From the NCBI GenBank assembly GCA_019704295.1, contig AP024596.1, forward strand, positions 928,001 to 992,000: a stretch of DNA of 64,000 nucleotides, given 5' to 3'. This document shows, in pieces, positions 49,781 to 64,000 of the stretch; positions within the stretch are counted from its first letter, which is position 1; every line of letters starts with the position of its first letter. A program made the position numbers and the translations under genes. The notes beneath the pieces are model-generated. The model was not told where the DNA came from, made no database searches, and saw only the letters and a program-made list of their open reading frames with translations. This DNA comes from Sulfolobales archaeon HS-7 (GTDB taxonomy: Archaea > Thermoproteota > Thermoprotei_A > Sulfolobales > Sulfolobaceae).

Positions 49781-49966
49781 AGTGAAATGTCCTGCCCTAC
49801 CGATAAAGCTCTCTATTCCCATATTTTAAAAGTAGAATTTTATGGGACAGTGCGCAATGTGTAATTAATATGAATATCTGAATGAACTAAAAGTTATAAA
49901 ACATGTCTCTGTAGATAAGCTACGAGTACTACTTTTTATATTAGTGAGGAATTCGCTCCTTCGTCA

Positions 49967-50273
49967 CACTATCTAATGTACAAAATCTTATGTTATTTAT
50001 TTTAAAAACTAGATTTTGAGGATGTAGGAATAACCCACCTTATGTTACTCAATTATGAGATAGTACAGGGGAATTAGGAGAGATTAAACTCCTTTGCTGG
50101 CTTCCTAAGCTTAAGAAATATCTAGCTTTACTCTCTACAAACTTCGAACTTGTTACGCTGAAAACCTCTCTTTACCCAAGATTCTAGAAAAATACGTGAT
50201 TACTTGTCACTATACTAAATAAACTTACTTTATATTATCCCCCTCCTCGTAATTAAGCGAATTTAATTCTGGA
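49967..50273 (+). repeat. family A repeat, right end missing
   Basis: 36-nt identity 50001-50036 = 59217-59252; begins with arm CACTATCTAATGT; an inverted right-end fragment lies at 49848-49910. Confidence 0.85.
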
Positions 50274-50293
50274 ATGTAAATCACATTAGCCTA

Positions 50294-50614
50294 CTATTTT
50301 AGATACTTAATCCCCCATTTTTGTATCTCTTCAAACGCTCCCTTCAGCTCTTTACCTTTCTCCGTAAGCTCGTACCTTACCTTAAATGGTCTGTCTGAGA
50401 TTATTATCCTTTTTATAACGTCATATCTCTCCAGTTCTTTCAGTGTAGAAGACAAAGTCTTAGAACTTAGTTTCGTCAATCTCTCCAGTTCATTAAATCC
50501 TTTTCCTCCATCTAATAAGTACCTTAAAACAAGTAACTTACGTTCACTACCTATTATTCTAATGGTCTCGACAATTGGGCAAAATGTTTCCTCAACTTTC
50601 TTCAAGGTAACCAA
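50294..50614 (-). CDS. HxlR family transcription regulator
   Basis: CPIVETIRIIG, FNELE, VRYELTEKG. Confidence 0.92.
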   Translation of the reverse strand: MVTLKKVEETFCPIVETIRIIGSERKLLVLRYLLDGGKGFNELERLTKLSSKTLSSTLKELERYDVIKRIIISDRPFKVRYELTEKGKELKGAFEEIQKWGIKYLK

Positions 50615-50669
50615 ATTTAGTTATATTCACGTAGTGTATATATACTTTACTTTCCACACTTACTTTGCA

Positions 50670-50876
50670 ATGGTTAGGTTAGTAAGACACGACCGGAATA
50701 AACCATATGAAATAAAGGCAGATAACGGACAAGTTTTTTACGTATGTGCATGTGGGCTATCTAAACATAAACCATTCTGTGATGGCTCCCACAAAAGAAC
50801 TCTAGATGAGGAAGAGGGAAATGTATATATATACGACGATGAGGGAAAAATAAAGTTAAATAACTTTTATCCGTAA
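50670..50876 (+). CDS. CDGSH iron-sulfur domain protein
   Basis: CACGLSKHKPFCDGSH; start MVRLV. Confidence 0.93.
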   Translation: MVRLVRHDRNKPYEIKADNGQVFYVCACGLSKHKPFCDGSHKRTLDEEEGNVYIYDDEGKIKLNNFYP

Positions 50877-50887
50877 AACTCTTTTTT

Positions 50888-51025
50888 ACTAGGAGACAGC
50901 CGAAGGTCCTTGATCTCTGGTAATCCGCATTAAGTATTATCCCCTTAATTGAGCTTGCGTGTTATGGCTATATTCCAAGAATTTAATTTTTAAAGTAAAT
51001 AACATTTATTGCGCATTGTATACTG
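50888..51025 (-). repeat. family A left-end copy (inverted)
   Basis: Reverse complement begins CAGTATACAATGC GCAATAAATGTTATTTACTTTAAAAA, matching the other copies. Confidence 0.75.
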
Positions 51026-51508
51026 TTACATGAAAAACTAACAAGTTTACGCACTTTTTCTAGAGACAAAGGTTGATCCTTACCCACTTAACGGAAATTT
51101 TGTAAATTTTTACTCTCATCCACTAGATTTTTCTCATATTTTCGAAACTCTCTCATTTTAGTAAAAAAATTGGCGTGAAAGCACCTATTAAGGGAACAGT
51201 TCACGTCTCCATTTGGAATCCCGTTTATTTAAAGTATTGTAGCAAATTTTATTGAATATTATCGCAATGCGTACGGAGATATTTACGCTTAAAAGTTTAC
51301 TTCATTTCATTTATTTTTCTCGTAAACTACAATTTGCAACTGACGCCTTAATCACTCGGTTAGGGAGTCAGATTCTTCTATAGAATGGAAAGCTCGCAAG
51401 CCGTATTACAATAGAGACCTTAACCTTATAGTAAAACCGATTTTTTCCACAGCACAATCTAGATAGGAAAAAATATAATGAGACGAGATAGAATATTATC
51501 TAATTGCT

Positions 51509-51592
51509 GCCGGGGTGCCCGAGCGGTCCAAGGGGCCGGCCTTGAGAGCCGGTAGGGACAACCCTGCGCGGGTTCGAATCCCGCCCCCGGCG
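51509..51592 (+). tRNA. tRNA-Ser(TGA)
   Basis: GCCGGGG/CCCCGGC acceptor stem, CCGGC-CT-TGA-GA-GCCGG anticodon arm, long variable arm, GGTTCGAATCC; no encoded CCA. Confidence 0.97.
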
Positions 51593-51639
51593 TTTCCACC
51601 TTTCTAGTAAATTTTTACATTAAACTTCGAGTTCAGAAA

Positions 51640-53230
51640 GTCGAGTTGAGGAGCCCCACAGGCTTTGCCTCTACCACTCCTGGGGGAACTGCGAATTCGT
51701 GAGAGTCAAACAATTGCTACGTCACTCTTATAACTGTAATACCGTTCTTTCTTGTACTTATTAATTACCTATAGCACCTAGAGTAATTTCTTCACAACCT
51801 CGTGGGTATTGCCCATTTGTTATATCGACCTAAGGGCGTTATAGCCTCTTGAATAGTGTTTTATCCCCTCGTTATACCTGGGCTTAATATTGTTTATCCC
51901 TTCACTTACTTGTTTGTTACCTTCTTGCAATACTTGGTTTTCCCCTAGTTTTGCGTAAATTCCTTCCTAGGAGTTCGCAAGTTAGTCTCGCAGATAGGAA
52001 ATTGAGGGGATTACTCCAAGGCGCTACATGCTTCGCCTCTAACATAGCTATGGGAACAGCGAGTCCAGAACGTTGCCTACATCAACATCGCAATGGATCG
52101 CTATCTTCATCCATAGTATTACGTTTTCTCCCCGTGCAAGGTATTTTATAACTGAATGGCAAGTAAAACTTGTCCTTTTTGTTCACGGGTTTTCCGAGTT
52201 CTAGTTCTCTAACCCTTTTCGAGAACCAGGTACGGCACCTGGAAAAGGTAATCTACTCCGTGATGTTTAACAGTTACCCTCACCCTTTCTCGCTCAACTT
52301 TTCTCAACGTCGATTTCACCTCTTACGTACACTATGTTAAGTACCGGTTTCCTAGATGAAGCTTATCCTCCTCTCGATCCTCCTCTTCCACCACTTTAGT
52401 ATCGATAACGCGACGCATACAGCGCTGTCAGCGTAGTGGAAAGTAAACTCGTTTAACTTCTTCAGTTCATCCCTCAACCCCTTATACACTTCCTTTATCC
52501 TTGGTAACGTTTTCTTGACCCTTGTAAAGACCTTCCCCTTTTTAACTTCCTTCCCCTCGACTTTACTCCTTTCCACAACCAGTCTAACGCGTTCCGTAGT
52601 AATCTCTTGTTCTCTAATAACACCTCGCTTTCCTCCTTCTTTTCGTTATTCACGGAGTAAGTTAGGTAAACGTACTCCCCTTCAGGTGTGAAAGTCTTAA
52701 GCCTTAAGCTCTTCTGCATATTTCTTTACCTTTTCATACTATGACTTATACTATATAGCTCACTGAATGACACTAGGATCGAGATGAGGTCTTAGATTAG
52801 CTCTTATTCTTGCGTCTTGTCATCTTTGTTTACCACAACTATTTCTCGGTTATGTGCTTTGCATATTTCTTCTACTATTTCCAGACCGAACCTTATTAGT
52901 CCCTCTGGACGCGCTATAACAATTTTTGATACTTCGTTTTTAGTATCATCCTGAACAGTTTGAGTAGTCCTTTTCACGTTCAATCCCTAACTCACATACG
53001 TTATCGCTTGGTCGTAACCATTAATCTGTTCCTCAGAGTGTTTTACTTGTTTTATCAATTCGTCCTCTTGCGTGTTGAGACGTAACGTATTACACTACTT
53101 TCCTCTTCCTAACAATATCCATCAAACTCTCCAACTTTTCCTTTCCGAACCTCCACTTTTCCCAACTACCGTTAGTTTAATGTAGCCCTTCTTTACTTAT
53201 TCCCTAAGCGTGGCATACGAGTTCCCTAGA
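51640..53230 (-). mobile_element. decayed IS607-family element (serine-recombinase tnpA and tnpB pseudogenes)
   Basis: Broken tnpA (SYATLRE..KKGYIK; RFGLEIVEEICKAHN) and tnpB fragments (EYVYLTYS, HYADSA); boundaries approximate. Confidence 0.82.
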
Positions 53231-53236
53231 CACTGT

Positions 53237-53380
53237 TATATTTACTCAGACCTCAAGGGAAAATCTCTCATTAGGCAGTGTATAACACACCTAACTCTGT
53301 AGAACACTAGAAATCATAGCTTCGGAAGATGTTATTGTATATGAGATAATCACTTGCTTTTTAAGGTCTGACCAAGTATA
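53237..53380. mobile_element. 144-bp IS630-type MITE
   Basis: Right end TTAAGGTCTGACCAAGTATA identical to 31260-31279; left end is a 16/20 inverted match. Confidence 0.85.
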
Positions 53381-53433
53381 ACTCCTTTAGGTCTTAGAAT
53401 CGTATAAGATTATACGATCAAGTAATGTAAACT

Positions 53434-53925
53434 TTACGGTCTATCGGAAACTGTCAGTAACGGCTTTTTCCTGACGTGACCTCCGCATACTTTACATCTT
53501 TTAATGGGTTCGCTAAACCTTTTTTTACAGCTATTACACACATATTCAAACCTTCTTGCATCTTTTATTCCAAACATCCTCACCGGATTAAATCTTATTT
53601 TAAAAATCTTGAGAATGTTCTGTAGTGAATAATCATCAGTAAACACTAACGAGTTATTAAAATCTAGAGCGAGCGCAGCAATAGAAATATCTGCATCTGA
53701 CAGGCTGAATTCCCCTATTCTTTTACACGTATCTTGGATTTTTGCTACTCCCTCTTTGCTGGGAGTTAATATTACTATTTTATTAGCGCTCAGACCTAGT
53801 TCTAAATTTGTCGAAGATCTGATGTCTTTAATCTCCTCAATAACTAGTTGCGTGGTAAATACTAGGCTGAAAAAGTTTTCCAGCCCCGCTATAAATGCGC
53901 CTGTGTCAAATATTACTTCGTCCAC
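53434..53925 (-). CDS. nob1: Nob1 family rRNA endonuclease (PIN domain and Zn ribbon)
   Basis: FDTGAFI, LSDADI, TDDYSLQN, CxxC..CxxCG. Confidence 0.93.
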   Translation of the reverse strand: MDEVIFDTGAFIAGLENFFSLVFTTQLVIEEIKDIRSSTNLELGLSANKIVILTPSKEGVAKIQDTCKRIGEFSLSDADISIAALALDFNNSLVFTDDYSLQNILKIFKIRFNPVRMFGIKDARRFEYVCNSCKKRFSEPIKRCKVCGGHVRKKPLLTVSDRP

Positions 53926-54638
53926 GTTAACTTTCTCCTCTCATTATAAAACCTAAGGATTTTAGCCCTTTTATTACTTCTGTTTATTAATATTTCAGTA
54001 TCTTCATCTACAGTCCCAATAATGTTACCGTCAACGAAAGTTCTGGCTTGCCCCGTATGAAATATTGGCTTAACTCTTGCCACAATAGGATAGTTATTTA
54101 CAACATAAGATCTTACTGGAGCCAGGATCGGATTCAGTAAAGTTATTACGGTAGCATCAACGCCCCTTCCTAAATAAGGACCTAACGCCGATAAGGACCA
54201 TCCAGTACTGCCTTGCTGAGTCGATATGACCACACCGTCTCCCTCAAATTCCACTTCTATCTCGCCCGAACTTATGTTAATAGTTATGGTTTTTCCGTTA
54301 TTCGCCATAATCGCAAAGTCATTAAAAAAGTCATATCCATTCACATTCAGCATAGAATAGTCTTCTATCAAGTATTCAGAATTTTTAAGCCTGTCTAGAC
54401 AATCTTCAACTTTATCGGGCTCCACGTCAGCTAAAAAGGATCTCCTCCCTGCCTTGAAAGCCACTATAGGCTTTCCAAATCTTACTGCTCTTAAAAGCGT
54501 TCCGTCTCCTCCTATCGAGAAGACGACTTCGGGTTCATTCTGATCCTCGATAAATCCCCTTTTTTTGGCTTCAGTTCTTATTTTAGCCACAAGTTCAGAT
54601 ACGGATGAAGAGGGCTTATTCACTATGGCAAACTTCAT
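53913..54638 (-). CDS. NAD kinase
   Basis: GGDGTLL, ND, DG...STQQGSTGW motifs. Confidence 0.93.
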   Translation of the reverse strand: MKFAIVNKPSSSVSELVAKIRTEAKKRGFIEDQNEPEVVFSIGGDGTLLRAVRFGKPIVAFKAGRRSFLADVEPDKVEDCLDRLKNSEYLIEDYSMLNVNGYDFFNDFAIMANNGKTITINISSGEIEVEFEGDGVVISTQQGSTGWSLSALGPYLGRGVDATVITLLNPILAPVRSYVVNNYPIVARVKPIFHTGQARTFVDGNIIGTVDEDTEILINRSNKRAKILRFYNERRKLTWTK

Positions 54639-54996
54639 TACGATCTACCTCTTATGGGATTAAGGTTTTATCATTATTGGGACTTGCTGTAAGGATGAGA
54701 CAGAACATTATACCTCTTTAGACTCTAATCGTCAATACGTCTTCCTTTAAGTACTCTAGCTTTAACGCTATTTAAGGAATCTCTAACTGGAAAACGCAAG
54801 TCATGTTATTTAGAATAAATTTATTTCAACTAATAAGATAATTCGATCTGTTGGGAACATAGCGAAAAAATCCTAAAAAATACGTTATTTTAAAGACATA
54901 TCATGAAAAGATTAAATATGAGTTGATATGTTTCGTAAGAGTTAGTAAAATGAAAGGTGATAGAAAATTAACTGCGAAAAAAACAAGGTTTATGCA

Positions 54997-55815
54997 ATGG
55001 ACTGTTTAGAAGGTATGCGTAAGTGTCTTGAAGATAAGTCTGTGGATGTCGTCGTAACTTCTCCCCCTTATAATATAGGTATTAAATATAACAAATATAA
55101 TGATACAATTCCTAGGAATCATTACCTAAATTGGATTGAAGATGTAGGGTTAGAGATTAGGCGTGTTTTAAAGGATGAAGGTTCTTTCTTCCTTAATATG
55201 GGTCACAAGCCATCAGATCCGTGGGTTCCATGGGAAGTGGCGTTTAGACTAAAGAAGTATTTTGTATTGCAAAACGTGATTATTTGGGTTAAAAGTATTG
55301 CAATACAAAAAAACGATACAGGGAATTATCCCAGTATTAGCGGAGACATTGCAGTAGGTCACTTTAAACCAATCAATGGTAAGCGATTCCTAAATAGTAA
55401 TTATGAATATATCTTTCATTTTACAAAAAGTGGAAAAGTAGAGCTTGACAGATTGGGGATCGGTGTCCCTTACCAGGATAAAACAAACATTGGACGATGG
55501 AATTCCGCAACTAAAGATTTAAGGTGTAGAGGAGATACGTGGTTTATTCCATATGAAACAATCCGAAGTAGGGAAAAAGAGAGGCCGCACCCTTCTACTT
55601 TTCCCCCTAAACTCCCAGAAATGTGTATACGACTTCACGGTTTGAATAAAGTGAACCTTGTCTTGGATCCCTTTATCGGAATAGGGAATACAGCACTTGC
55701 GTGTATTAGACTTGGATTAGATTGGATTGGTTTTGAAATAGATGAGTATTATGCGGATATTACAGAAAAAAGAGTTAAGGAGTACTTGTTACGGTCTGTT
55801 GAAAATGATCGATAA
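54997..55815 (+). CDS. beta-class N4-cytosine DNA methyltransferase, orphan
   Basis: TSPPY motif IV before DPFIGIG motif I; HPSTFP. Confidence 0.9.
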
Positions 55816-55935
55816 AGTATATATGTTTGTTTTTATTTATAATAATAATTAGTTTTACTATAAATGATACAGTTTCAAGTAGAGGTGTAGATTTTCCGTC
55901 TTACGCGAAAATTATACACTTTCTTCGACTCTAGA

Positions 55936-56300
55936 TAGCATGTAATGTGTAATACTATTTAGTTAATTTATTAACTAAATTTTTATAGTAAGAGTAAGCA
56001 ATACGTAGCTCAGTTAGAGAGGTAACATTCTTGATCAGGATCACGAGAGATTAAACTCCTTTATCAACCTCTTATGTTTATAATATCTTGTGGTACCCTT
56101 GGTAAACAATGATCACAATGGACTAAAAAGGTCTTACTTAGCCTTGATTCTCGAAAAATACGTGATTACTCACTAATACTTAATAACTGACTTTATATAA
56201 TTTCTCATTTTATAATTAAATCTATTTCATTCTTAATATATCTATTCTATAATTTATTATTTTATTTAGCTATTTATCTTTATTATATACTAATGTATTA
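55936..56300 (+). repeat. family A repeat (diverged)
   Basis: TTTATTAACTAAATTTTTAT, GAGAGATTAAACTCCTTT and CTAGCCTTGATTCTCGAAAAAT shared with other copies. Confidence 0.8.
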
Positions 56301-56439
56301 TTACTTAATTAATCTCCTAAAATAGAAGTCAATGTTTCCCTACTTTAATCGAAATTTGGTTAATTTCTAACTCTCTTGAGCGAGATTTTTCCATATTTTA
56401 GAAATTGTCCCATTTTTAGTAAAATTGATTAAGCACGAA

Positions 56440-56568
56440 AGCAAGGGAGTTTAATCTCTTGTAATTTTCTTACATTACTGTTTTAATTATATGTAATAAG
56501 ATGAATTATTCCTATATACCAAAGTTTAGTTAATAAAGTAAATAACATTTACTCTACATTAACACCGC
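56440..56568 (-). repeat. family A left-end copy (inverted)
   Basis: Reverse complement contains TAAATGTTATTTACTTTATTAACTAAA and AATTACAAGAGATTAAACTCC. Confidence 0.75.
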
Positions 56569-56719
56569 CACTGTTTCCTAAATTGTCCTATCTTTAAAAA
56601 TAACGTAATACCATCAATTACATCTACAGCAAGGGGCTTAAAGCAATCCTACTCATGTGCTGATAACTGTAATAGCTTTTATAGAGGTTAACCTTCCTTA
56701 TATTTGTAGAATATTTGGC

Positions 56720-57475
56720 CTACTTATGTCCGCGATTTTCAGAACCAAACATGCTAACTATCTTATTTAAGGCGTTTCTCATATTCTCTATACCACTTAG
56801 TTTAGTTGCGAACTCATCGGCCTCACTTTCCATTGTTAGATTTACCTCTTTGAATATTGCATACGAGAATGGGTTTACTGAATAAAGGGGGAGGAATATA
56901 TACAGCATCATTTTCTTCCTGGTATGATGAAGTCTTATATGGGCATATTCGTGAAGTATGACTGCCCTTACTTCCTCTTTTTCCATTGACTCCAGTAAAC
57001 CTACCGAGAGAATAATAATTGCTCTCCCTAGTAACGAAAACGAGTAGGCCAACGGCTTTCCACTATTTATTACTCTTATACTTACTTTGTCGAGATCTTG
57101 ATTAATCACGTCCTTAACATAAGCCGAAGTTGAAGGGTCTCTAATCATAACATTAAGTAGGGTAACTCTAAATATTATCAACCTTGTTATGAGAGATATC
57201 CCAACAACTACCGCTAGTATAAAGGCTGGATCGTGCAAATATACTCGCCTTATAAAAATCTGTGCCCAAAGGTATTCGTTTATTTTTCTCCCTATTATGT
57301 TGAGTATAAGGAAAATAGGTTTAAACTCCTCGGTTAGGAGAGGTAACGAGGATACTATAAACGAAAAAATTGTGAAAATATGCCTCTTAATAAAATAAAA
57401 ACCTAAAAAAATCGAGACTACATATGCAATGATAAATTGGGGTGGGAATATGTGTAGGAAAAAACTAGGGTGCAA
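56720..57475 (-). CDS. BlaR1-like membrane zinc peptidase (M56/M48)
   Basis: TM helices, AVILHEYAHI, ESEADEFA. Confidence 0.88.
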   Translation of the reverse strand: MHPSFFLHIFPPQFIIAYVVSIFLGFYFIKRHIFTIFSFIVSSLPLLTEEFKPIFLILNIIGRKINEYLWAQIFIRRVYLHDPAFILAVVVGISLITRLIIFRVTLLNVMIRDPSTSAYVKDVINQDLDKVSIRVINSGKPLAYSFSLLGRAIIILSVGLLESMEKEEVRAVILHEYAHIRLHHTRKKMMLYIFLPLYSVNPFSYAIFKEVNLTMESEADEFATKLSGIENMRNALNKIVSMFGSENRGHK

Positions 57476-57824
57476 TTTTTTCTAACCTCCTTCTCAATTC
57501 CTCAATATCCTTACTACCTAAGATAGAAGCGATCAATGGATCTTCTAATTTTTCAATAACCCCCTGGACAGCCTTTCTTAGTAACTCTTTAGCAAATTCT
57601 TCCTTACTGATTCTGGGATAATACACGTATCTCAATCCACCGTCCTTAGTCAGGTACCTCCCTACTAAGCCCTTGTGATAAAGTCTATCAAGTATCGTTG
57701 ACACAGTTGTGGGAGCTATATCCCTCTCTTTCTTCAACTCATCATAAACGTCCTTAACGTATACCTTGTTTTTTTGCCAAACTACATCCATTATCTTTTT
57801 CTCTAAATCCCCTAGTTCACTCAT
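57465..57824 (-). CDS. BlaI/MecI/CopY family repressor
   Basis: LGDLEKKIMDVVW, TTVSTILDRLYHKGLV. Confidence 0.93.
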   Translation of the reverse strand: MSELGDLEKKIMDVVWQKNKVYVKDVYDELKKERDIAPTTVSTILDRLYHKGLVGRYLTKDGGLRYVYYPRISKEEFAKELLRKAVQGVIEKLEDPLIASILGSKDIEELRRRLEKIAP

Positions 57825-57911
57825 GTTTTGATGTACTCCAGTCTCTTTCCACAGTATTATATCTTACCTTTGAGAATATACTAAGTTCGATTTGATCGTT
57901 TCATCTCGTGA

Positions 57912-59177
57912 CAGTGTCTAATGCACAATAAATGTAATCTACTTTATTAACTAAATTTTTATGAGAAAGACAAATTCAAAGAACTTACATGGAAGGGTAA
58001 TACTTAAGGGGGATTACACCTAGATTATACCGTGGTTCAGATTTATTCCGACGTAATCCCCCAAGAGTTGGGTTGGAAGAGTAAATATCTTTTGGAGTGC
58101 GAGGAAATCCTGAGTGAGTTAGAGGACGTAATTGAAAGGGAGTTCAAGGATCACGAGTTCTCCAAGTACTAACGTGGTCTACTTGAAGATGATGATCGTG
58201 AGAGTGCTTTTCAAAGAGTCGTATAGGGGAGTAATTGTGCTAGCGGTTACCAATGAAGTGGTCAAGGTTTTCCTCGGCGTTAAAGAGGTTCCCTCGAGGT
58301 CCTCTTGAACTGGTTTGCGTACGAATACGAAGATAGAATAAGGGATCTGCTCCTCAAGGTCTTCAGGCGATTAGAGTCGCGAGTTAACGAGGAGCAACTT
58401 CCACCACTTCCCAGCGAAGGAGAAGTTCGGAAGGCAAAGGTTGATAGCTTTCCCGTGGAGCCTCCTCACGGGGAAAAGAGCGTGGAAACGCACAGAAACT
58501 TGTACTGGATCTCAGGGAAATTGATCCAAGGAGGAAACCTCATGAAGTACTTGCGACGCTCGATGAGAGGAAAAGGGATCAACTCTTTTCTCTCATTTCC
58601 GAGAAATTACACCCTTGGGGACATGAGGGAAGCTGGGGAAAGAAGTGAGGCAGAACTTGGTTCGGAGGGAAGTGCTTCGCCGGGTTCTCCTTAAGACCCT
58701 CATGGTTTGCAAGGTTAAGATAGTTCCAGCCAAAGTTTCAACTTTAAGTCTCCCGTCTGCAACGTGATCACGCTTGTAGACAGAGGGTTTGTAGAGAAAG
58801 GCAAGGTGATCAGAGTCAAGAGGGGCTTGGAAATACTGAGAGGTGGTGTAGAGTTCTTTGACACTTTCCTCAGAACATGAGGCCTTACGCGAGGAGCATA
58901 AGGGATTGAACGTCTTTGCCAACCTCTTGGGCCTAGCCTACAATATTCAGCGATTTAGGTCCATTAACAAACGTTAAAATCTCCACTTAAAACCCGGCTA
59001 GAGAAGCTCGTCCCTAGCCTTGATTCTCGAAAAATCGAGATTACTTGCAAGTGTACTTAATAAACTAGTTTTATATTGTTTCTTCACTAGTAATTAAGCG
59101 AATTTAATTCTAGATCTACGTGTTTTATAACTTTTTACTTTATTTAGTTATTCACTTTAATTATATATTGGACACTG
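57912..59177 (+). repeat. family A repeat interrupted by an IS
   Basis: Starts CAGTGTCTAATGC, ends ATATTGGACACTG, both flanked by TCTCGTGA. Confidence 0.8.
58004..58990 (+). mobile_element. decayed IS5-like (ISC1234/ISC1290-type) element
   Basis: Higher-GC frameshifted transposase (ELGWKSKY, YLKMMIVRVLFKESYRG, VDSF), TTAA at both ends; family assignment tentative. Confidence 0.65.
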
Positions 59178-59185
59178 TCTCGTGA

Positions 59186-59545
59186 CACTATTTAGTATGT
59201 AATTAATGTTATTTACTTTAAAAACTAGATTTTGAGGATGTAGGAATAACCCCCTTACACTACTCAATTATGAGATAGAAGAGAATTACAAGAGATTAAA
59301 TTTCTCTGCCAACTCCCTAAGCTTGAAATATCCAGTGTTACACTCTGTAAACTTTGAACTCATCGTAGAGGAAATTTAGATGTTAGTTTTGATTCTTGAA
59401 AGATATACAATTACTTTTGATTATATCCAATGTAATAATTTTATATTATTTCCTTCATTTAGTGAAGCGAATTCAAACCTAGATAGACGTGCTTTAAAAC
59501 GTTTAACTTTATCTAGTTATTTATATTAATTACGCATTAGACATT
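59186..59545 (+). repeat. full family A repeat (360 bp)
   Basis: Arm CACTATTTAGTAT to GCATTAGACATT, followed by TTCGTGA. Confidence 0.85.
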
Positions 59546-59755
59546 TTCGTGAGACTGTAATTGGAGCAGGAGCATATCATATCTACCTTCGCTTAGGAGC
59601 CTCGGTAATGCTTACTATCTCAGTGAGTCTCATCTACATATTTAGCTGCGGGTCAACTTAGACTTAGGCAAAGAGGGAAATCATCCTCGCGGATCTTCCG
59701 CTTACTTAATCACCTATTAAGATAAACTATTATTTACTTTCATAGCAAGAAAAAT

Positions 59756-60019
59756 TCATTGTATTAAACGGAGGATCTCCTCTAAAACTGATTGCGGAAA
59801 GTTTTGGACTCTCTTTACGATCTCTACAACCGAATCAAAGGATGTAAATGTATAAACTTCCTTTCTCCCGCCGTCCTCAATTACCTCCAAAACTACCTCC
59901 TTCATTGAGTTTTCAGTTAAAATTCTATACCCTATCAAATATCCATCCTTTATAGGATATTCCTTCTTTACACCAGACTGGTCAAAATACTCCTTCTTAA
60001 ATCCCTCAACCGATATCAT
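59756..60019 (-). CDS. hypothetical protein
   Basis: 87-aa ORF with an upstream TATA-like sequence. Confidence 0.65.
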   Translation of the reverse strand: MISVEGFKKEYFDQSGVKKEYPIKDGYLIGYRILTENSMKEVVLEVIEDGGRKEVYTFTSFDSVVEIVKRVQNFPQSVLEEILRLIQ

Positions 60020-60547
60020 AGTATAGTATATGTCTGTACTCCGGTATAAGCTTGTTTATTAATGTATTTGACTACAATTAAAATAACTTAAACTTCTAGC
60101 CGAACTGATTTGATAAATACCTTTTTCCACAGCTTAAATTATTCAAGAGTAGTAAAGGTCATCATTCAAACTAAATTACTTGCATTCAAAGAACATTCCT
60201 CCCCGGTTCATGATTATATATGTTCCAATAAGAAGGAGGCAAAGCTCTATTAACATTAAGGAGGGCTCTATTGCTATCTATTTTAGAATGCCTAATGCCG
60301 TTCTAGAGTGTAAGGAATTAAGTAAATACAAGCACATCCCAAAGTCGACGCATAATCTTAAGGTATGTACCATTAATTCTAAATTAAATCAAAGCGTTTT
60401 AAGATACAGTTTATCTTTATATGATTTCATTAATAAAAACTTTATGGATACAGGGTTATTTTTTATTAACATTTTACAAGTCTAAACCATAAAATACTTT
60501 CGCACATGCCTCATTTTATTTTAGGAAAGTCTCAGTATCGAAGAAAC

Positions 60548-61018
60548 ATGATTAAGAAATGTAGAAAAAGTAAAAATAGGTTCGGTATATCCTCTATCCT
60601 TGGAACGATTATAGTGATAGCGATTACTGTAGCTTTAGGAGGTCTTCTATATACATATAGTAAGGGATTATTTCAATCAATGTCTCAGAATTCTCTATAC
60701 GAGGCGTCGGCGCAAATAGTAGTAAATCCAGACTCAAATGTAGCTTTGCTAGAATATAGTATTCAAAATACTGGAAATACTCAGTTTTACTTACAGAAGA
60801 TAGTGATATTAAGCACCTCGTCTGGTTCACAATCATCCTCTAACGTTTCCGTTAAGATCACTCCTCAGGTTATTCAACCAGGTCAGACTACGGAAAACGT
60901 TACAACGATAGTCGGGAACGTAACGGCGGGTAATTATTATACTGTCATATTTTATATAACGATGCCTAATGGAAAAACCCTAACCTCCACTGAGAACGTA
61001 TTAGCTACAATAAGCTAA
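60548..61018 (+). CDS. type IV pilin, UpsA-like
   Basis: Class III signal peptide KNRFG/ISSILGTIIVIAITVALGGLLY. Confidence 0.85.
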   Translation: MIKKCRKSKNRFGISSILGTIIVIAITVALGGLLYTYSKGLFQSMSQNSLYEASAQIVVNPDSNVALLEYSIQNTGNTQFYLQKIVILSTSSGSQSSSNVSVKITPQVIQPGQTTENVTTIVGNVTAGNYYTVIFYITMPNGKTLTSTENVLATIS

Positions 61019-61037
61019 CTAACGGGAGGAGTAATTA

Positions 61038-61421
61038 GTGAAAGGGGTTTCTGAAGTTCTAGGAAGCATCATAACACTAGCCGTACTATTAGCACTACTC
61101 TCACCATTATTATATTATTTTTTCTCATATACAAATATTACTAGTGTTGCAATAAACAATGATATAAGTATTGATAGATCGGCAATATTAACATGTCTCT
61201 CCATAATAGTTTTGGGAAATACCTCTAGCGAAGTGTTTCTGTATAACTATGGAAATATAGAAATACATATAACTAGAGTCGTACTAAATGATCGCCTCCT
61301 TACTACCGATTACACTATCCAACCACATAATATCGTCAGGTTATCATCAATGATAGGAGATATGAAAATATCGACCCCAATAATAATATATGCAAACAAT
61401 ATAATTATTTCCTCTAATTGA
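61038..61421 (+). CDS. type IV pilin, UpsB-like
   Basis: MKG/VSEVLGSIITL; YNYG motif; RBS GGAGG. Confidence 0.82.
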   Translation: MKGVSEVLGSIITLAVLLALLSPLLYYFFSYTNITSVAINNDISIDRSAILTCLSIIVLGNTSSEVFLYNYGNIEIHITRVVLNDRLLTTDYTIQPHNIVRLSSMIGDMKISTPIIIYANNIIISSN

Positions 61422-61433
61422 ATTTTTTAATTA

Positions 61434-62315
61434 CTAAGTTATTAGCTGAAAAGTTATCCTTTCTGCTCTGTCTAAGTTAATCTCCATCATGTTTTCCCTT
61501 TCGTATAATCTACCCTTAATGAAAATCCTTGTACCTTCCTTTAATTCTGAATACCTAATTCTATAAGACGTGAGTAAATAATCTCCAGCTTTATAAATAA
61601 GGGGCATAGAAAAAGGGCGTAAACTCTCATCGATATTAACGATCCCCTCAAATTGATAACTCCTTAATACGGGTTTAAAATGCACGCATTGCACTATTTT
61701 GAAAGTATAAGGTGTTTCTTGATATACTCCTTCCAAATATCGTTTTCTCTTGAGAAATAACATGTCATCTTTACCCATTCCCTCTATTTCATCATATCTA
61801 ACATAAGATAGGGGTGACGTGATTCCCATTTCCCTCAATCTCACTAGTTTGTTATAATTTTCAGGATTAAATGATATTAAATCAATATCATTTCCTTCTC
61901 CCTTGTATAACAGACTTCCGGTTATTCCCACGTCTTTAAAATACATTGTAAACTCCGTCCTTGAAGTGATTTCGAACGGATCGAGAACTTCAGCATCTGC
62001 TGTAGGTACAGCGGGTACGTATTCTCCTATATCATCGAAATACGTTACCAACTTAGGATACTTTATCCTCACGATTTTCATTCCATCTGCTAAGGTCTTA
62101 ATTTTCTCTCCAGTAGCAATATTGTACCTTGGCATACCTATTATGTAGTCATCCGGTTGAAAGCATCCCTTTACCGCCCATATATATTTGTCATATTTTA
62201 TCATGTAACCTTCTACAGGCTTATCATTTGGATACACCCTATAACCACACCTGCTCAAATCTGTCTTCAAACGCGTGTTTAGAAAGCTTTCCCTCAATTG
62301 GTATCTTGTTATCAC
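61434..62315 (-). CDS. predicted nucleotidyltransferase-like protein
   Basis: GITGSL...DIDL motif; start uncertain. Confidence 0.65.
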
Positions 62316-63297
62316 AGAACTTACACCGCATGTCCTCGGTTAAGTTCCATGATAAGATTCTAAACCCGTTCCTTCTAATTACTTCTCTTCCGCAGTTATG
62401 ACAATAGGTGTTCTCGAACGGGTGGCCGGGAACATTTCCAAGGTATACGTAATTAAGACCTTCCTCCTTAGCAACTTTATAATGTGCTTCCAATAAAGGT
62501 ATGGGAGTATGGGGGATTCCCATCAACTTATAATCTGAATGAAACCTCAAGAAATGTAATGGTGTATCAGGACCTAATTTATCTACTATAAACCTTGCAA
62601 GTCTTCTGGCGTTTTCTAAACTGGCTCCTATCTCAGGTATAACAAGATCGGTTATTTCAACGTGAATTCCAGCTTTCTTTAAACCCTCAGCCGTTTCGAA
62701 TATAGGCTCCGGCCCAGAAGCACCGACATATCTTTTCAAGAATTTTTCATCTCCATTACCCTTAAAATCGATTGTTGCCGCAGATAGGAATTCCCTTAAA
62801 TAGCCTACTAACTCTGGAGTTCCGTATCCATTAGTTACGTATATTGTAAAAATATTATATTTCCTCGCAATTTTCGAAACATCCTGTGCAAATTCCGAAA
62901 ATATTATTGGTTCATTATAGGTGAATGCTATACCATCACTTTCATACGCTCGTGCCATGTCAACTATTTCACTAGGATCAAGCTCTACACCTTCTACTTT
63001 TCGTCGCTGACTTATTTCATAGTTTTGACAGTATGCACACATCCAGGAACAGCCTGTTGTAGAAAAGGAAAATATACGACTACCAGGATTAAAATGAACA
63101 ACTGGTTTTTTTTCAATAGGGTCTATGGCTACAGAAGCTACTCGGCCGTAAACGTCCAAGTATAGACTGCCGTTAATGTTGGTCCTAACTCCGCAGAATC
63201 CTGTTTGCCCTTCCCTGAGAAGACATCGCCTAGCACAGGCAACACACCTCAAAGCGTTTCCTTCACCTCTAATATAAAGTGATGCCTCCTTCCCCAT
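62239..63297 (-). CDS. amrS: AmmeMemoRadiSam system radical SAM enzyme
   Basis: [35 protein letters not shown]. Confidence 0.92.
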
Positions 63298-63421
63298 ATC
63301 TACTCTAATATTGTATCTTGATAATTAAGTACCTTACGTATTACAATTCAAAGTAAAGTGTGTCTTAAGTGGTTAAAAAGCTCAACAGCACTGTTTAGAT
63401 GAAGACATATAAGACTTGAGA

Positions 63422-63786
63422 TAGTGCCCAACGCGTAATTAATGTGGATAACTAGATAAACTAAAAAGTTATAAAACTCATTAGTCTAGAATTAAATTCG
63501 CTTAATTATGTCGAGAGGGAAAATGTAAAATAAGTTTATTAAGTCCAGTCATAAGTAATCACATATTTCTCGAAAAATGAGGTTAAAGAGAGCTTTTCAG
63601 TGTAATGGGTCAGAGATTAACTGAAGGTACCACCTGATGTCTCAAGGTAGGAAAGCTAACAAAGTGGTATAATTACTCCTTGATTGCTCTCTATTATCGT
63701 CATAAATGACTACTATTAAGTGGGTTATTCCTACATCTTAAAATTTAGTTTTTAAAGTAAATTACATTATTACACATTGAAGACTC
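63422..63786 (-). repeat. full family A repeat (365 bp, inverted)
   Basis: AGAATTAAATTCGCTTAATTA and GGGTTATTCCTACATC match other copies; flanked by ACTTGAGA/ACTTGAAA. Confidence 0.85.
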
Positions 63787-64000
63787 ACTTGAAACCACAT
63801 ACCCCTTCAACGTTTTCCGAAGTTTTAAAGAAACTAGTATTAATAGACGTTGAAATGGGCTTGCTTGAATTAAGAGCCCTATATTACCTTCCGATAAATG
63901 GCAAAGAATTCCCTAAATTTCAGGGTATTCTTTATCCTGGTTTGGAACTTGATGTCGGCTTTCTAGAAAAGTCTGTTAAATGTACTTTGTTTAGCGAAAG

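Follow-up and report, generated by a model that had tools for sequence, protein, structure and literature searches.

What is the repeat of about 360 bp that crowds the last 14 kb of a 64-kb stretch of the chromosome of Sulfolobales archaeon HS-7 (GenBank assembly GCA_019704295.1, contig AP024596.1, positions 928,001 to 992,000; this whole stretch is called the window here), and where did it come from? An original prediction made from the sequence had wavered between an unannotated family of mobile elements, i.e., MITEs (miniature transposable elements with inverted repeats), and a set of sites for a site-specific recombinase. The first of these proposals is borne out by our analysis, which reveals the repeat as a colinear internal-deletion derivative of an insertion sequence (IS) with a DDE transposase. 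With a probability of roughly 0.93, we regard the family as a fossil MITE that arose from an ISSto3-like element of the IS5 family through deletion of the transposase gene and that is extinct in this genome.

The genome in question consists of a single contig of 2.15 Mb with a G+C content of 39.6%, and its relatives are Sulfolobaceae. An nhmmer profile of 365 positions, built from 19 full-length genomic copies, found 117 matches dispersed over the 2.15 Mb, 35 of which were full-length (~365 bp). The search for further copies proposed with the original prediction was therefore positive. Nine matches fall within 13.9 kb of the window, where 0.76 would be expected from the genome density (Poisson P ~1e-7), while nhmmer detected none elsewhere in the 64 kb. 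All eight positions at which the prediction had placed its minimum of eight copies within 14 kb match one and the same repeat family in the profile search. A repeat search in the part of the window from 48 to 64 kb, to which the scans for open reading frames (ORFs) and Rfam families were also restricted, returned many direct and inverted matches among these positions. The exact blocks said to be shared between copies are present as well: 50001-50036 is identical to 59217-59252, and TAATTAAGCGAATTTAATTCT occurs exactly in three places, at 50250, at 59091 and, on the minus strand, at 63488. Of the copies in the window, those at 59184-59546 and 63423-63785 alone are complete; truncation or heavy decay has affected the others. 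Both complete copies lack ORFs of at least 50 amino acids, in agreement with the earlier impression that the repeat has no coding capacity. Pairwise identity among the 19 aligned full-length copies has a median of 69% and a maximum of 85%.

The source of the repeat lies in the window itself. While no IS with the ends of the repeat had been recognized there originally, positions 57910-59179 proved to be a full-length IS with exactly these ends. The presumed repeat copy at 57912 thus matches the family correctly but is not a copy of its own; it is the left end of this IS. The element is dead: the remnant of its transposase frame contains six stops (one TGA, one TAG and four TAA) in addition to frameshifts. 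Its relatives in the genome share this fate. Besides the ~1270-bp element in the window, there are about eight that are likewise full-length and 85-95% identical, as well as a more distant one (73%), all of them broken, and the median pairwise identity of the IS copies is 86%. The autonomous element that the prediction had advised looking for was thus located in the window and in the genome, in broken copies throughout. An intact transposase was not detected anywhere in the genome, as every long match to the ISSto3 protein contains stops and the stop-free matches are short fragments. A search of a plasmid collection with the IS gave no match either.

Alignment of the two consensus sequences connects the repeat with this IS. 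In BLAST comparisons, positions 1-48 of the MITE correspond to positions 1-48 of the IS at 83% identity and positions 202-365 to 1103-1266 at 86%. Profile alignments extend the match to MITE 1-107 versus IS 1-105 and to MITE 99-365 versus IS ~980-1266. As judged from these alignments, the MITE is the roughly 1266-bp IS with a single internal deletion of ~880 bp. What is left are the 105-bp 5' untranslated region, some 30 codons from the end of the transposase gene, the ~200-bp non-coding 3' end and both terminal inverted repeats. A GGGGATT-like motif is present at both breakpoints, and in the profile it is here that the left and right parts of the MITE overlap, which hints at a deletion between short repeats. 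The breakpoint is resolved to ~10 bp at best. The consensus of the terminal inverted repeat of the MITE is CAGTGTCCAATGTGTAAT(A/T)AA; 21 of 22 bases agree between the two ends, and weaker subterminal similarity between them reaches out to ~50 bp. The inverted arms described originally are therefore real, but they are longer than the 13 bp assigned to them.

ORF fragments from the dead IS copies yielded no usable Pfam or NCBIfam match. As these broken-frame fragments gave no domain match, the parent family could be identified only via an intact homologue. Full-length relatives of the IS are present in one of the 40 related genomes searched; they share 71% identity and carry an intact ORF for 330 amino acids. 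NCBI lists the protein for Sulfurisphaera tokodaii str. 7 under the name 'IS5-like element ISSto3 family transposase'; no mention of ISSto3 was found in the literature searched. The ends of the MITE and its right-hand 135-165 bp match ISSto3 at 85-87%. That the ends might match those of an IS already known from Sulfolobales had been named beforehand as the outcome that would speak against a new family, and with this match most of the novelty is lost. In S. tokodaii, one ISSto3 copy has inserted into the 5' region of a second, truncated ISSto3 copy, 121 bp in from its left end.

The ISSto3 transposase matches Pfam DUF772 above cut-off (2e-8). DUF772 is the N-terminal domain typical of IS5 and IS1182 transposases. 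In the ESM Atlas, every nearest cluster carries DUF772 together with DDE_Tnp_1, and the predicted structure of the protein aligns over its full length with IS5-family transposases (TM 0.72). It counts against the assignment that the match to the Pfam model DDE_Tnp_1 itself (E=0.12) stays below threshold; the scores with the NCBIfam models for IS5 and ISNCY lie far under their cut-offs. We file the parent as a probable ISSto3-like element of the IS5 family, the catalytic domain of which is backed by structure prediction and by naming, with a non-significant match to the hidden Markov model.

When did the family become extinct? Two 4-bp frameshifting deletions are common to four dispersed IS copies, including the copy in the window, and absent from two others. 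The flanks of the four differ. Shared frameshifts in different surroundings indicate that dead copies spread after their inactivation, so that a source of transposase must have existed at that time and has since been lost. That such a source once acted in trans could also be taken as an argument that the MITE is still mobile, driven by a transposase encoded on a plasmid or virus or by one missing from the assembly, and so could the completeness score of 91% for the genome. We consider continued mobility improbable, since the single-contig genome contains no intact homologue and since the identities among the 19 aligned MITEs, with 85% for the closest pair, give no sign of a recent burst. The median of 69% for the MITEs against that for the IS copies indicates that the MITE burst is old and that the family is extinct here. 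In the history that we propose for the fossil MITE, a single internal deletion of ~880 bp would have removed nearly the whole transposase gene from an ISSto3-like IS, and full-length elements would have supplied the DDE transposase that mobilized the resulting MITE copies in trans. Insertion would have taken place at a preferred palindromic site, TC-WCGW-GA, with duplication of the four central bases. Later, all transposase copies would have broken and the MITEs would have drifted to their mutual identity of ~69%.

The target site deserves closer attention, as the original prediction spoke of 8-bp flanks. The sequences themselves are real: ACTTGAGA and ACTTGAAA both flank the copy at 63422, and the same TCTCGTGA stands to the left and to the right of the IS at 57910-59179. 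As an 8-bp unit, the flanks did not hold up. In most of 41 elements they read TC-W-CG-W-GA, a palindromic 8-mer that would be compatible with a duplication, with an extended inverted repeat, or with the two combined. A simple duplication of 8 bp was rejected since positions that should then be identical disagree (T in 20 elements at -8 versus 37 at +1; A in 39 at -1 versus 20 at +8). Mirror positions agree, with A at -1 in 39 of the 41 and T at +1 in 37, and with T at -8 and A at +8 in 20 each. The 8-bp flanks appear to be made up of three parts: the 2-bp tips of the element, GA...TC; a target duplication of 4 bp, which is mostly WCGW; and preferred target context of 2 bp. Direct identity between the flanks exceeds that of shuffled pairings by ~0.25 matches per element, and the surplus lies wholly within the four positions of the proposed duplication.

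Filled and empty sites, which the prediction had suggested comparing between strains, were obtained only for full-length ISSto3 in Sulfurisphaera. The first S. tokodaii site is empty in S. ohwakuensis (...cc(T/A)GGTggg) and reads ccAGGT-GA[IS]TC-AGGTggg when filled. For the second, the empty counterpart is ggaaaCACGTTtaat, contiguous in S. ohwakuensis (1206320-1206400), and the filled halves read ...acACGT-GA[IS and IS]TC-ACGT-Tcaat. These halves sit on two different IS copies, at 885 kb and 1165 kb of the S. tokodaii chromosome, the reciprocal halves of which both read TC-ACGA-GA. This indicates that recombination between two ISSto3 copies rearranged the S. tokodaii chromosome. The duplicated cores are thus AGGT and ACGT, with reciprocal flanks ACGA. 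Duplications of 6 bp, 8 bp or zero were rejected for ISSto3 as incompatible with the S. ohwakuensis empty site CACGTT; the S. ohwakuensis empty sites are compatible with duplications of 2-5 bp. For two further S. tokodaii copies, empty sites were not found in other Sulfurisphaera genomes. A target duplication of 4 bp is characteristic of the IS5 group. Together with 2-bp tips GA...TC, this length fits the symmetry of the tips and explains the variable third base.

Several observations weigh against this interpretation. Perfect 4-bp matches between the two flanks occur in only five of the 41 elements versus 2.0 expected (p ~0.04), and the duplication signal in this genome is weak (p ~0.04-0.07). 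The copy at 63423 shows a direct repeat of 6-7 bp (ACTTGA) that is off the 4-bp register unless a 2-bp slip at the decayed tip is assumed. Searches with flanks and joined flanks uncovered no paralogous empty site in this genome for any copy and gave self-artefacts of tandem elements or flanks ending at other repeats. A 2-bp CG duplication with variable 3-bp tips also retains some residual likelihood, given that the preferred target is a palindrome similar to the tips of the element, but it would leave the variation of the third base among near-identical copies unexplained. For the HS-7 genome, we infer both mobility and the 4-bp duplication, the size of which is taken from the filled and empty sites of the Sulfurisphaera relatives and from this weak signal. 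Note that TCGT, the duplication on both sides of the IS in the window, appears again at the far end of the adjoining MITE (59547-59550), 2 bp nearer than expected.

Once the ends of the elements are defined, inverted pairs of copies invite a further interpretation, namely composite transposons with captured cargo such as the genes for an HxlR-type regulator and a CDGSH protein in the region 49969-51025. Left ends of the MITE (49969-50276, plus strand, and 50890-51025, minus strand) do indeed face outward around this two-gene unit, and a similar inverted pair exists at 55938 and 56565. We nevertheless give captured cargo very little credence: the 613 bp between them occur just once in the genome, the flanking 4-mers are unlike (TCGT versus ACAT), and both bracketing copies are truncated as decay would leave them. 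The HxlR/CDGSH unit between the MITE left ends looks like a chance juxtaposition of truncated copies.

Even less remains of the proposal that the repeats are sites for a tyrosine or serine recombinase that bracket gene cassettes, with the 13-8-13 junction at 59165-59198 as a lox- or FRT-like crossover site. Two inverted arms around the eight nucleotides TCTCGTGA are a real geometry, and copies do occur between accessory genes. However, each arm belongs to an element of its own, one to the IS and the other to the adjoining MITE, and these two elements have the 8-nt spacer TC-TCGT-GA at 59178-59185 in common and share one target duplication. The junction is explained in this way and no recombinase is needed. 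In S. tokodaii, a DDE-transposase gene lies between these same ends, the comparison of filled and empty sites between S. tokodaii and S. ohwakuensis documents insertion with a duplicated target, and none of the 18 ORFs of at least 50 amino acids scanned between 48 and 64 kb encodes a recombinase domain. It is equally hard to believe that selection maintains the repeat in each copy because it encodes a non-coding RNA with a defined structure or acts as a cis-regulatory element, since the one point in its favor, the higher conservation of the right-hand 135-165 bp between genera (~87%) compared with the whole IS (74%), is expected anyway for subterminal sequence bound by a transposase, while RNAalifold on the 19 full copies returned no consensus structure on either strand (energy 0.00, no better than for column-shuffled alignments), Rfam matched only a tRNA between 48 and 64 kb, and the copies, many of them truncated, have diverged to 69% identity.

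In the fossil MITE and its parent, the junction at 59178-59185 acquires a different meaning. With GA...TC as tips, each insertion into TC-WCGW-GA would restore the preferred site on either border. The site would be formed by tip, duplication and flank in combination, and this would account for elements that lie directly side by side with a single duplication between them. A new element would thus have inserted into the duplication flanking a resident one to give the abutting pair in the window. Abutting pairs are found only twice in the genome, and the spacer is exactly 8 nt in both. It is conceivable, though we would put the chance somewhat below even, that this IS5 lineage is markedly selective for TC-WCGW-GA and that each insertion creates two fresh targets and thereby seeds neighboring insertions. 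If so, self-seeding would yield head-to-tail arrays with a shared 4-bp duplication and would contribute to the crowding in the window's last 14 kb. The features discussed so far are compiled in Table 1.

Table 1 Remnants of the MITE family and of its parent IS in the window (coordinates are window positions)
Feature	Position	Strand	Evidence
MITE right-end fragment	49848-49915	-	nhmmer E=4e-10, profile 297-365
MITE copy, right side truncated	49969-50276	+	nhmmer E=8e-68, profile 3-305
MITE left-end fragment	50890-51025	-	nhmmer E=4e-15, profile 1-138
MITE, nearly full, strongly decayed	55938-56288	+	nhmmer E=7e-37, profile 3-354
MITE left-end fragment	56432-56565	-	nhmmer E=2e-20, profile 3-137
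Left 4-bp target duplication of the IS, TCGT	57906-57909	+	read from sequence
Full-length dead parent IS, probably ISSto3-like, IS5 family	57910-59179	+	same ends as MITE; 71% to S. tokodaii ISSto3 over full length
Two ends of the full-length IS, matched by the MITE profile	57912-58017 and 58886-59177	+	nhmmer
Transposase frame remnant in the IS	58035-58877	+	ISSto3 transposase residues 3-292, E=4e-48
Right 4-bp target duplication of the IS, TCGT; also left flank of the adjoining MITE	59180-59183	+	read from sequence
Full MITE abutting the IS	59184-59546	+	nhmmer E=1e-76, profile 3-363, match at 59188-59544
Full MITE between radical-SAM gene and next gene	63423-63785	-	nhmmer E=1e-83, profile 2-364

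The genes between 48 and 64 kb encode a proteasome alpha subunit, homoserine dehydrogenase, the HxlR regulator, the CDGSH protein, a PIN protein, NAD kinase, a DNA methylase, an M48 peptidase with its repressor and a radical-SAM enzyme. A distance of 18 bp separates the end of the MITE copy at 49969-50276 from the stop codon of the gene for the HxlR-type regulator. Several other dispersed sequences were encountered in the same region. The 143 bp between two MITE fragments (56289-56431) belong to a different dispersed repeat with ~23 other matches in the genome at 78-89%, probably another MITE that inserted into or beside copies of the family described here. A short dispersed repeat of ~60-125 bp at ~52016-52140 has more than 30 genomic matches at 80-92% and may likewise represent a MITE family. 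The adjoining stretch of ~52138-53075 resembles positions 664149-665083 of the same genome (72% over 963 bp), and 53236-53381 is 94.7% identical to positions 1912438-1912589. The ORF-poor region of ~52138-53381 looks like further decayed mobile or duplicated DNA. A tRNA gene at 51509-51592 (Rfam, 56.6 bits), ~480 bp from a MITE left-end fragment, may carry an intron since it spans 84 nt on a model of 71 positions. As a whole, the last 14 kb of the window are a graveyard of decayed mobile DNA of several families between ordinary genes.

The closest known relative of the dead parent is ISSto3, to which the IS in the window is 71% and the IS consensus 74% identical. Both have the same layout, with ~117 bp of 5' untranslated region, a single ORF and ~200 bp of non-coding sequence at the 3' end, near-identical terminal repeats, GA-GAGCGTCCAATGTGTAAT in ISSto3 and GA-CAGTGTCCAATGTGTAAT here, and the same target context, TC-WCGW-GA. 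They differ in that ISSto3 is ~1313 bp long and has an intact transposase of 330 amino acids, while the element described here measures ~1266 bp and is broken in all copies. By the usual naming practice of ISfinder, 71-74% identity would make it a separate IS.

The distribution of the MITE among relatives is narrow. Matches were obtained in four of the 46 other family genomes searched, i.e., in both ISSto3-bearing Sulfurisphaera species and, as fragments, in two others, and the remaining 42 yielded nothing. In one genus with eight genomes, a single fragment was detected in one genome. S. tokodaii and S. ohwakuensis carry their own ISSto3-derived MITEs of ~325 bp (e.g., 898809-899133 and 2204966-2205281 in S. 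ohwakuensis), for which we know of no name. In S. ohwakuensis, several of these MITEs but only one internal IS fragment of ~470 bp were seen. They stem from the same IS lineage as the MITE analyzed here and are 82-84% identical to it at the two ends, but they keep positions 1-118 and 1136-1313 of ISSto3, while the MITE in HS-7 keeps ~1-105 and 980-1266 of its parent. The differing deletion breakpoints indicate that MITEs arose independently, at least twice, from this IS lineage. For work on archaeal IS elements, the value of the case lies in these independent origins in two genera and in tips and target preference that mirror each other. Furthermore, a false lead is removed, as both the lox-like junction and the 8-bp flanks come down to two transposon ends that share a target duplication. 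For the genome itself, an unannotated repeat that forms part of the mobile-DNA load of this member of the Sulfolobaceae has now been identified together with its parent, and the family recognized as extinct, which carries little weight beyond annotation.

Outside the archaea, the nearest counterparts are Tourist-type MITEs, which derive from PIF/Harbinger transposons, the eukaryotic relatives of IS5. Like the MITE described here, they are deletion derivatives of IS5-superfamily DDE elements at a short palindromic target. Unlike it, they are eukaryotic, use a 3-bp TWA target and depend on a parent that requires a second, Myb-like protein. Sulfolobales MITEs are well documented. Within the same archaeal family, the MITEs SM1 to SM4 are on record for Saccharolobus solfataricus (Redder et al. 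2001, as cited in PMC3718332), and S. islandicus contains SMN1 (320 bp), mobilized by ISC1733, and SM3A (164 bp), which is connected with ISC1058 (PMC3718332). These elements are concentrated in variable regions, where IS elements also occur (PMC3718332). The MITE described here resembles SM1 to SM4, SMN1 and SM3A in that all are short, lack ORFs, carry the inverted repeats of resident IS elements, depend on their transposase and are concentrated in regions of this kind. By description, it differs from them in its parent, which is ISSto3-like rather than ISC1733 or ISC1058, and in its size of 365 bp. The family is thus an unnamed addition to the known type of Sulfolobales MITEs, set apart from the SM elements by description.

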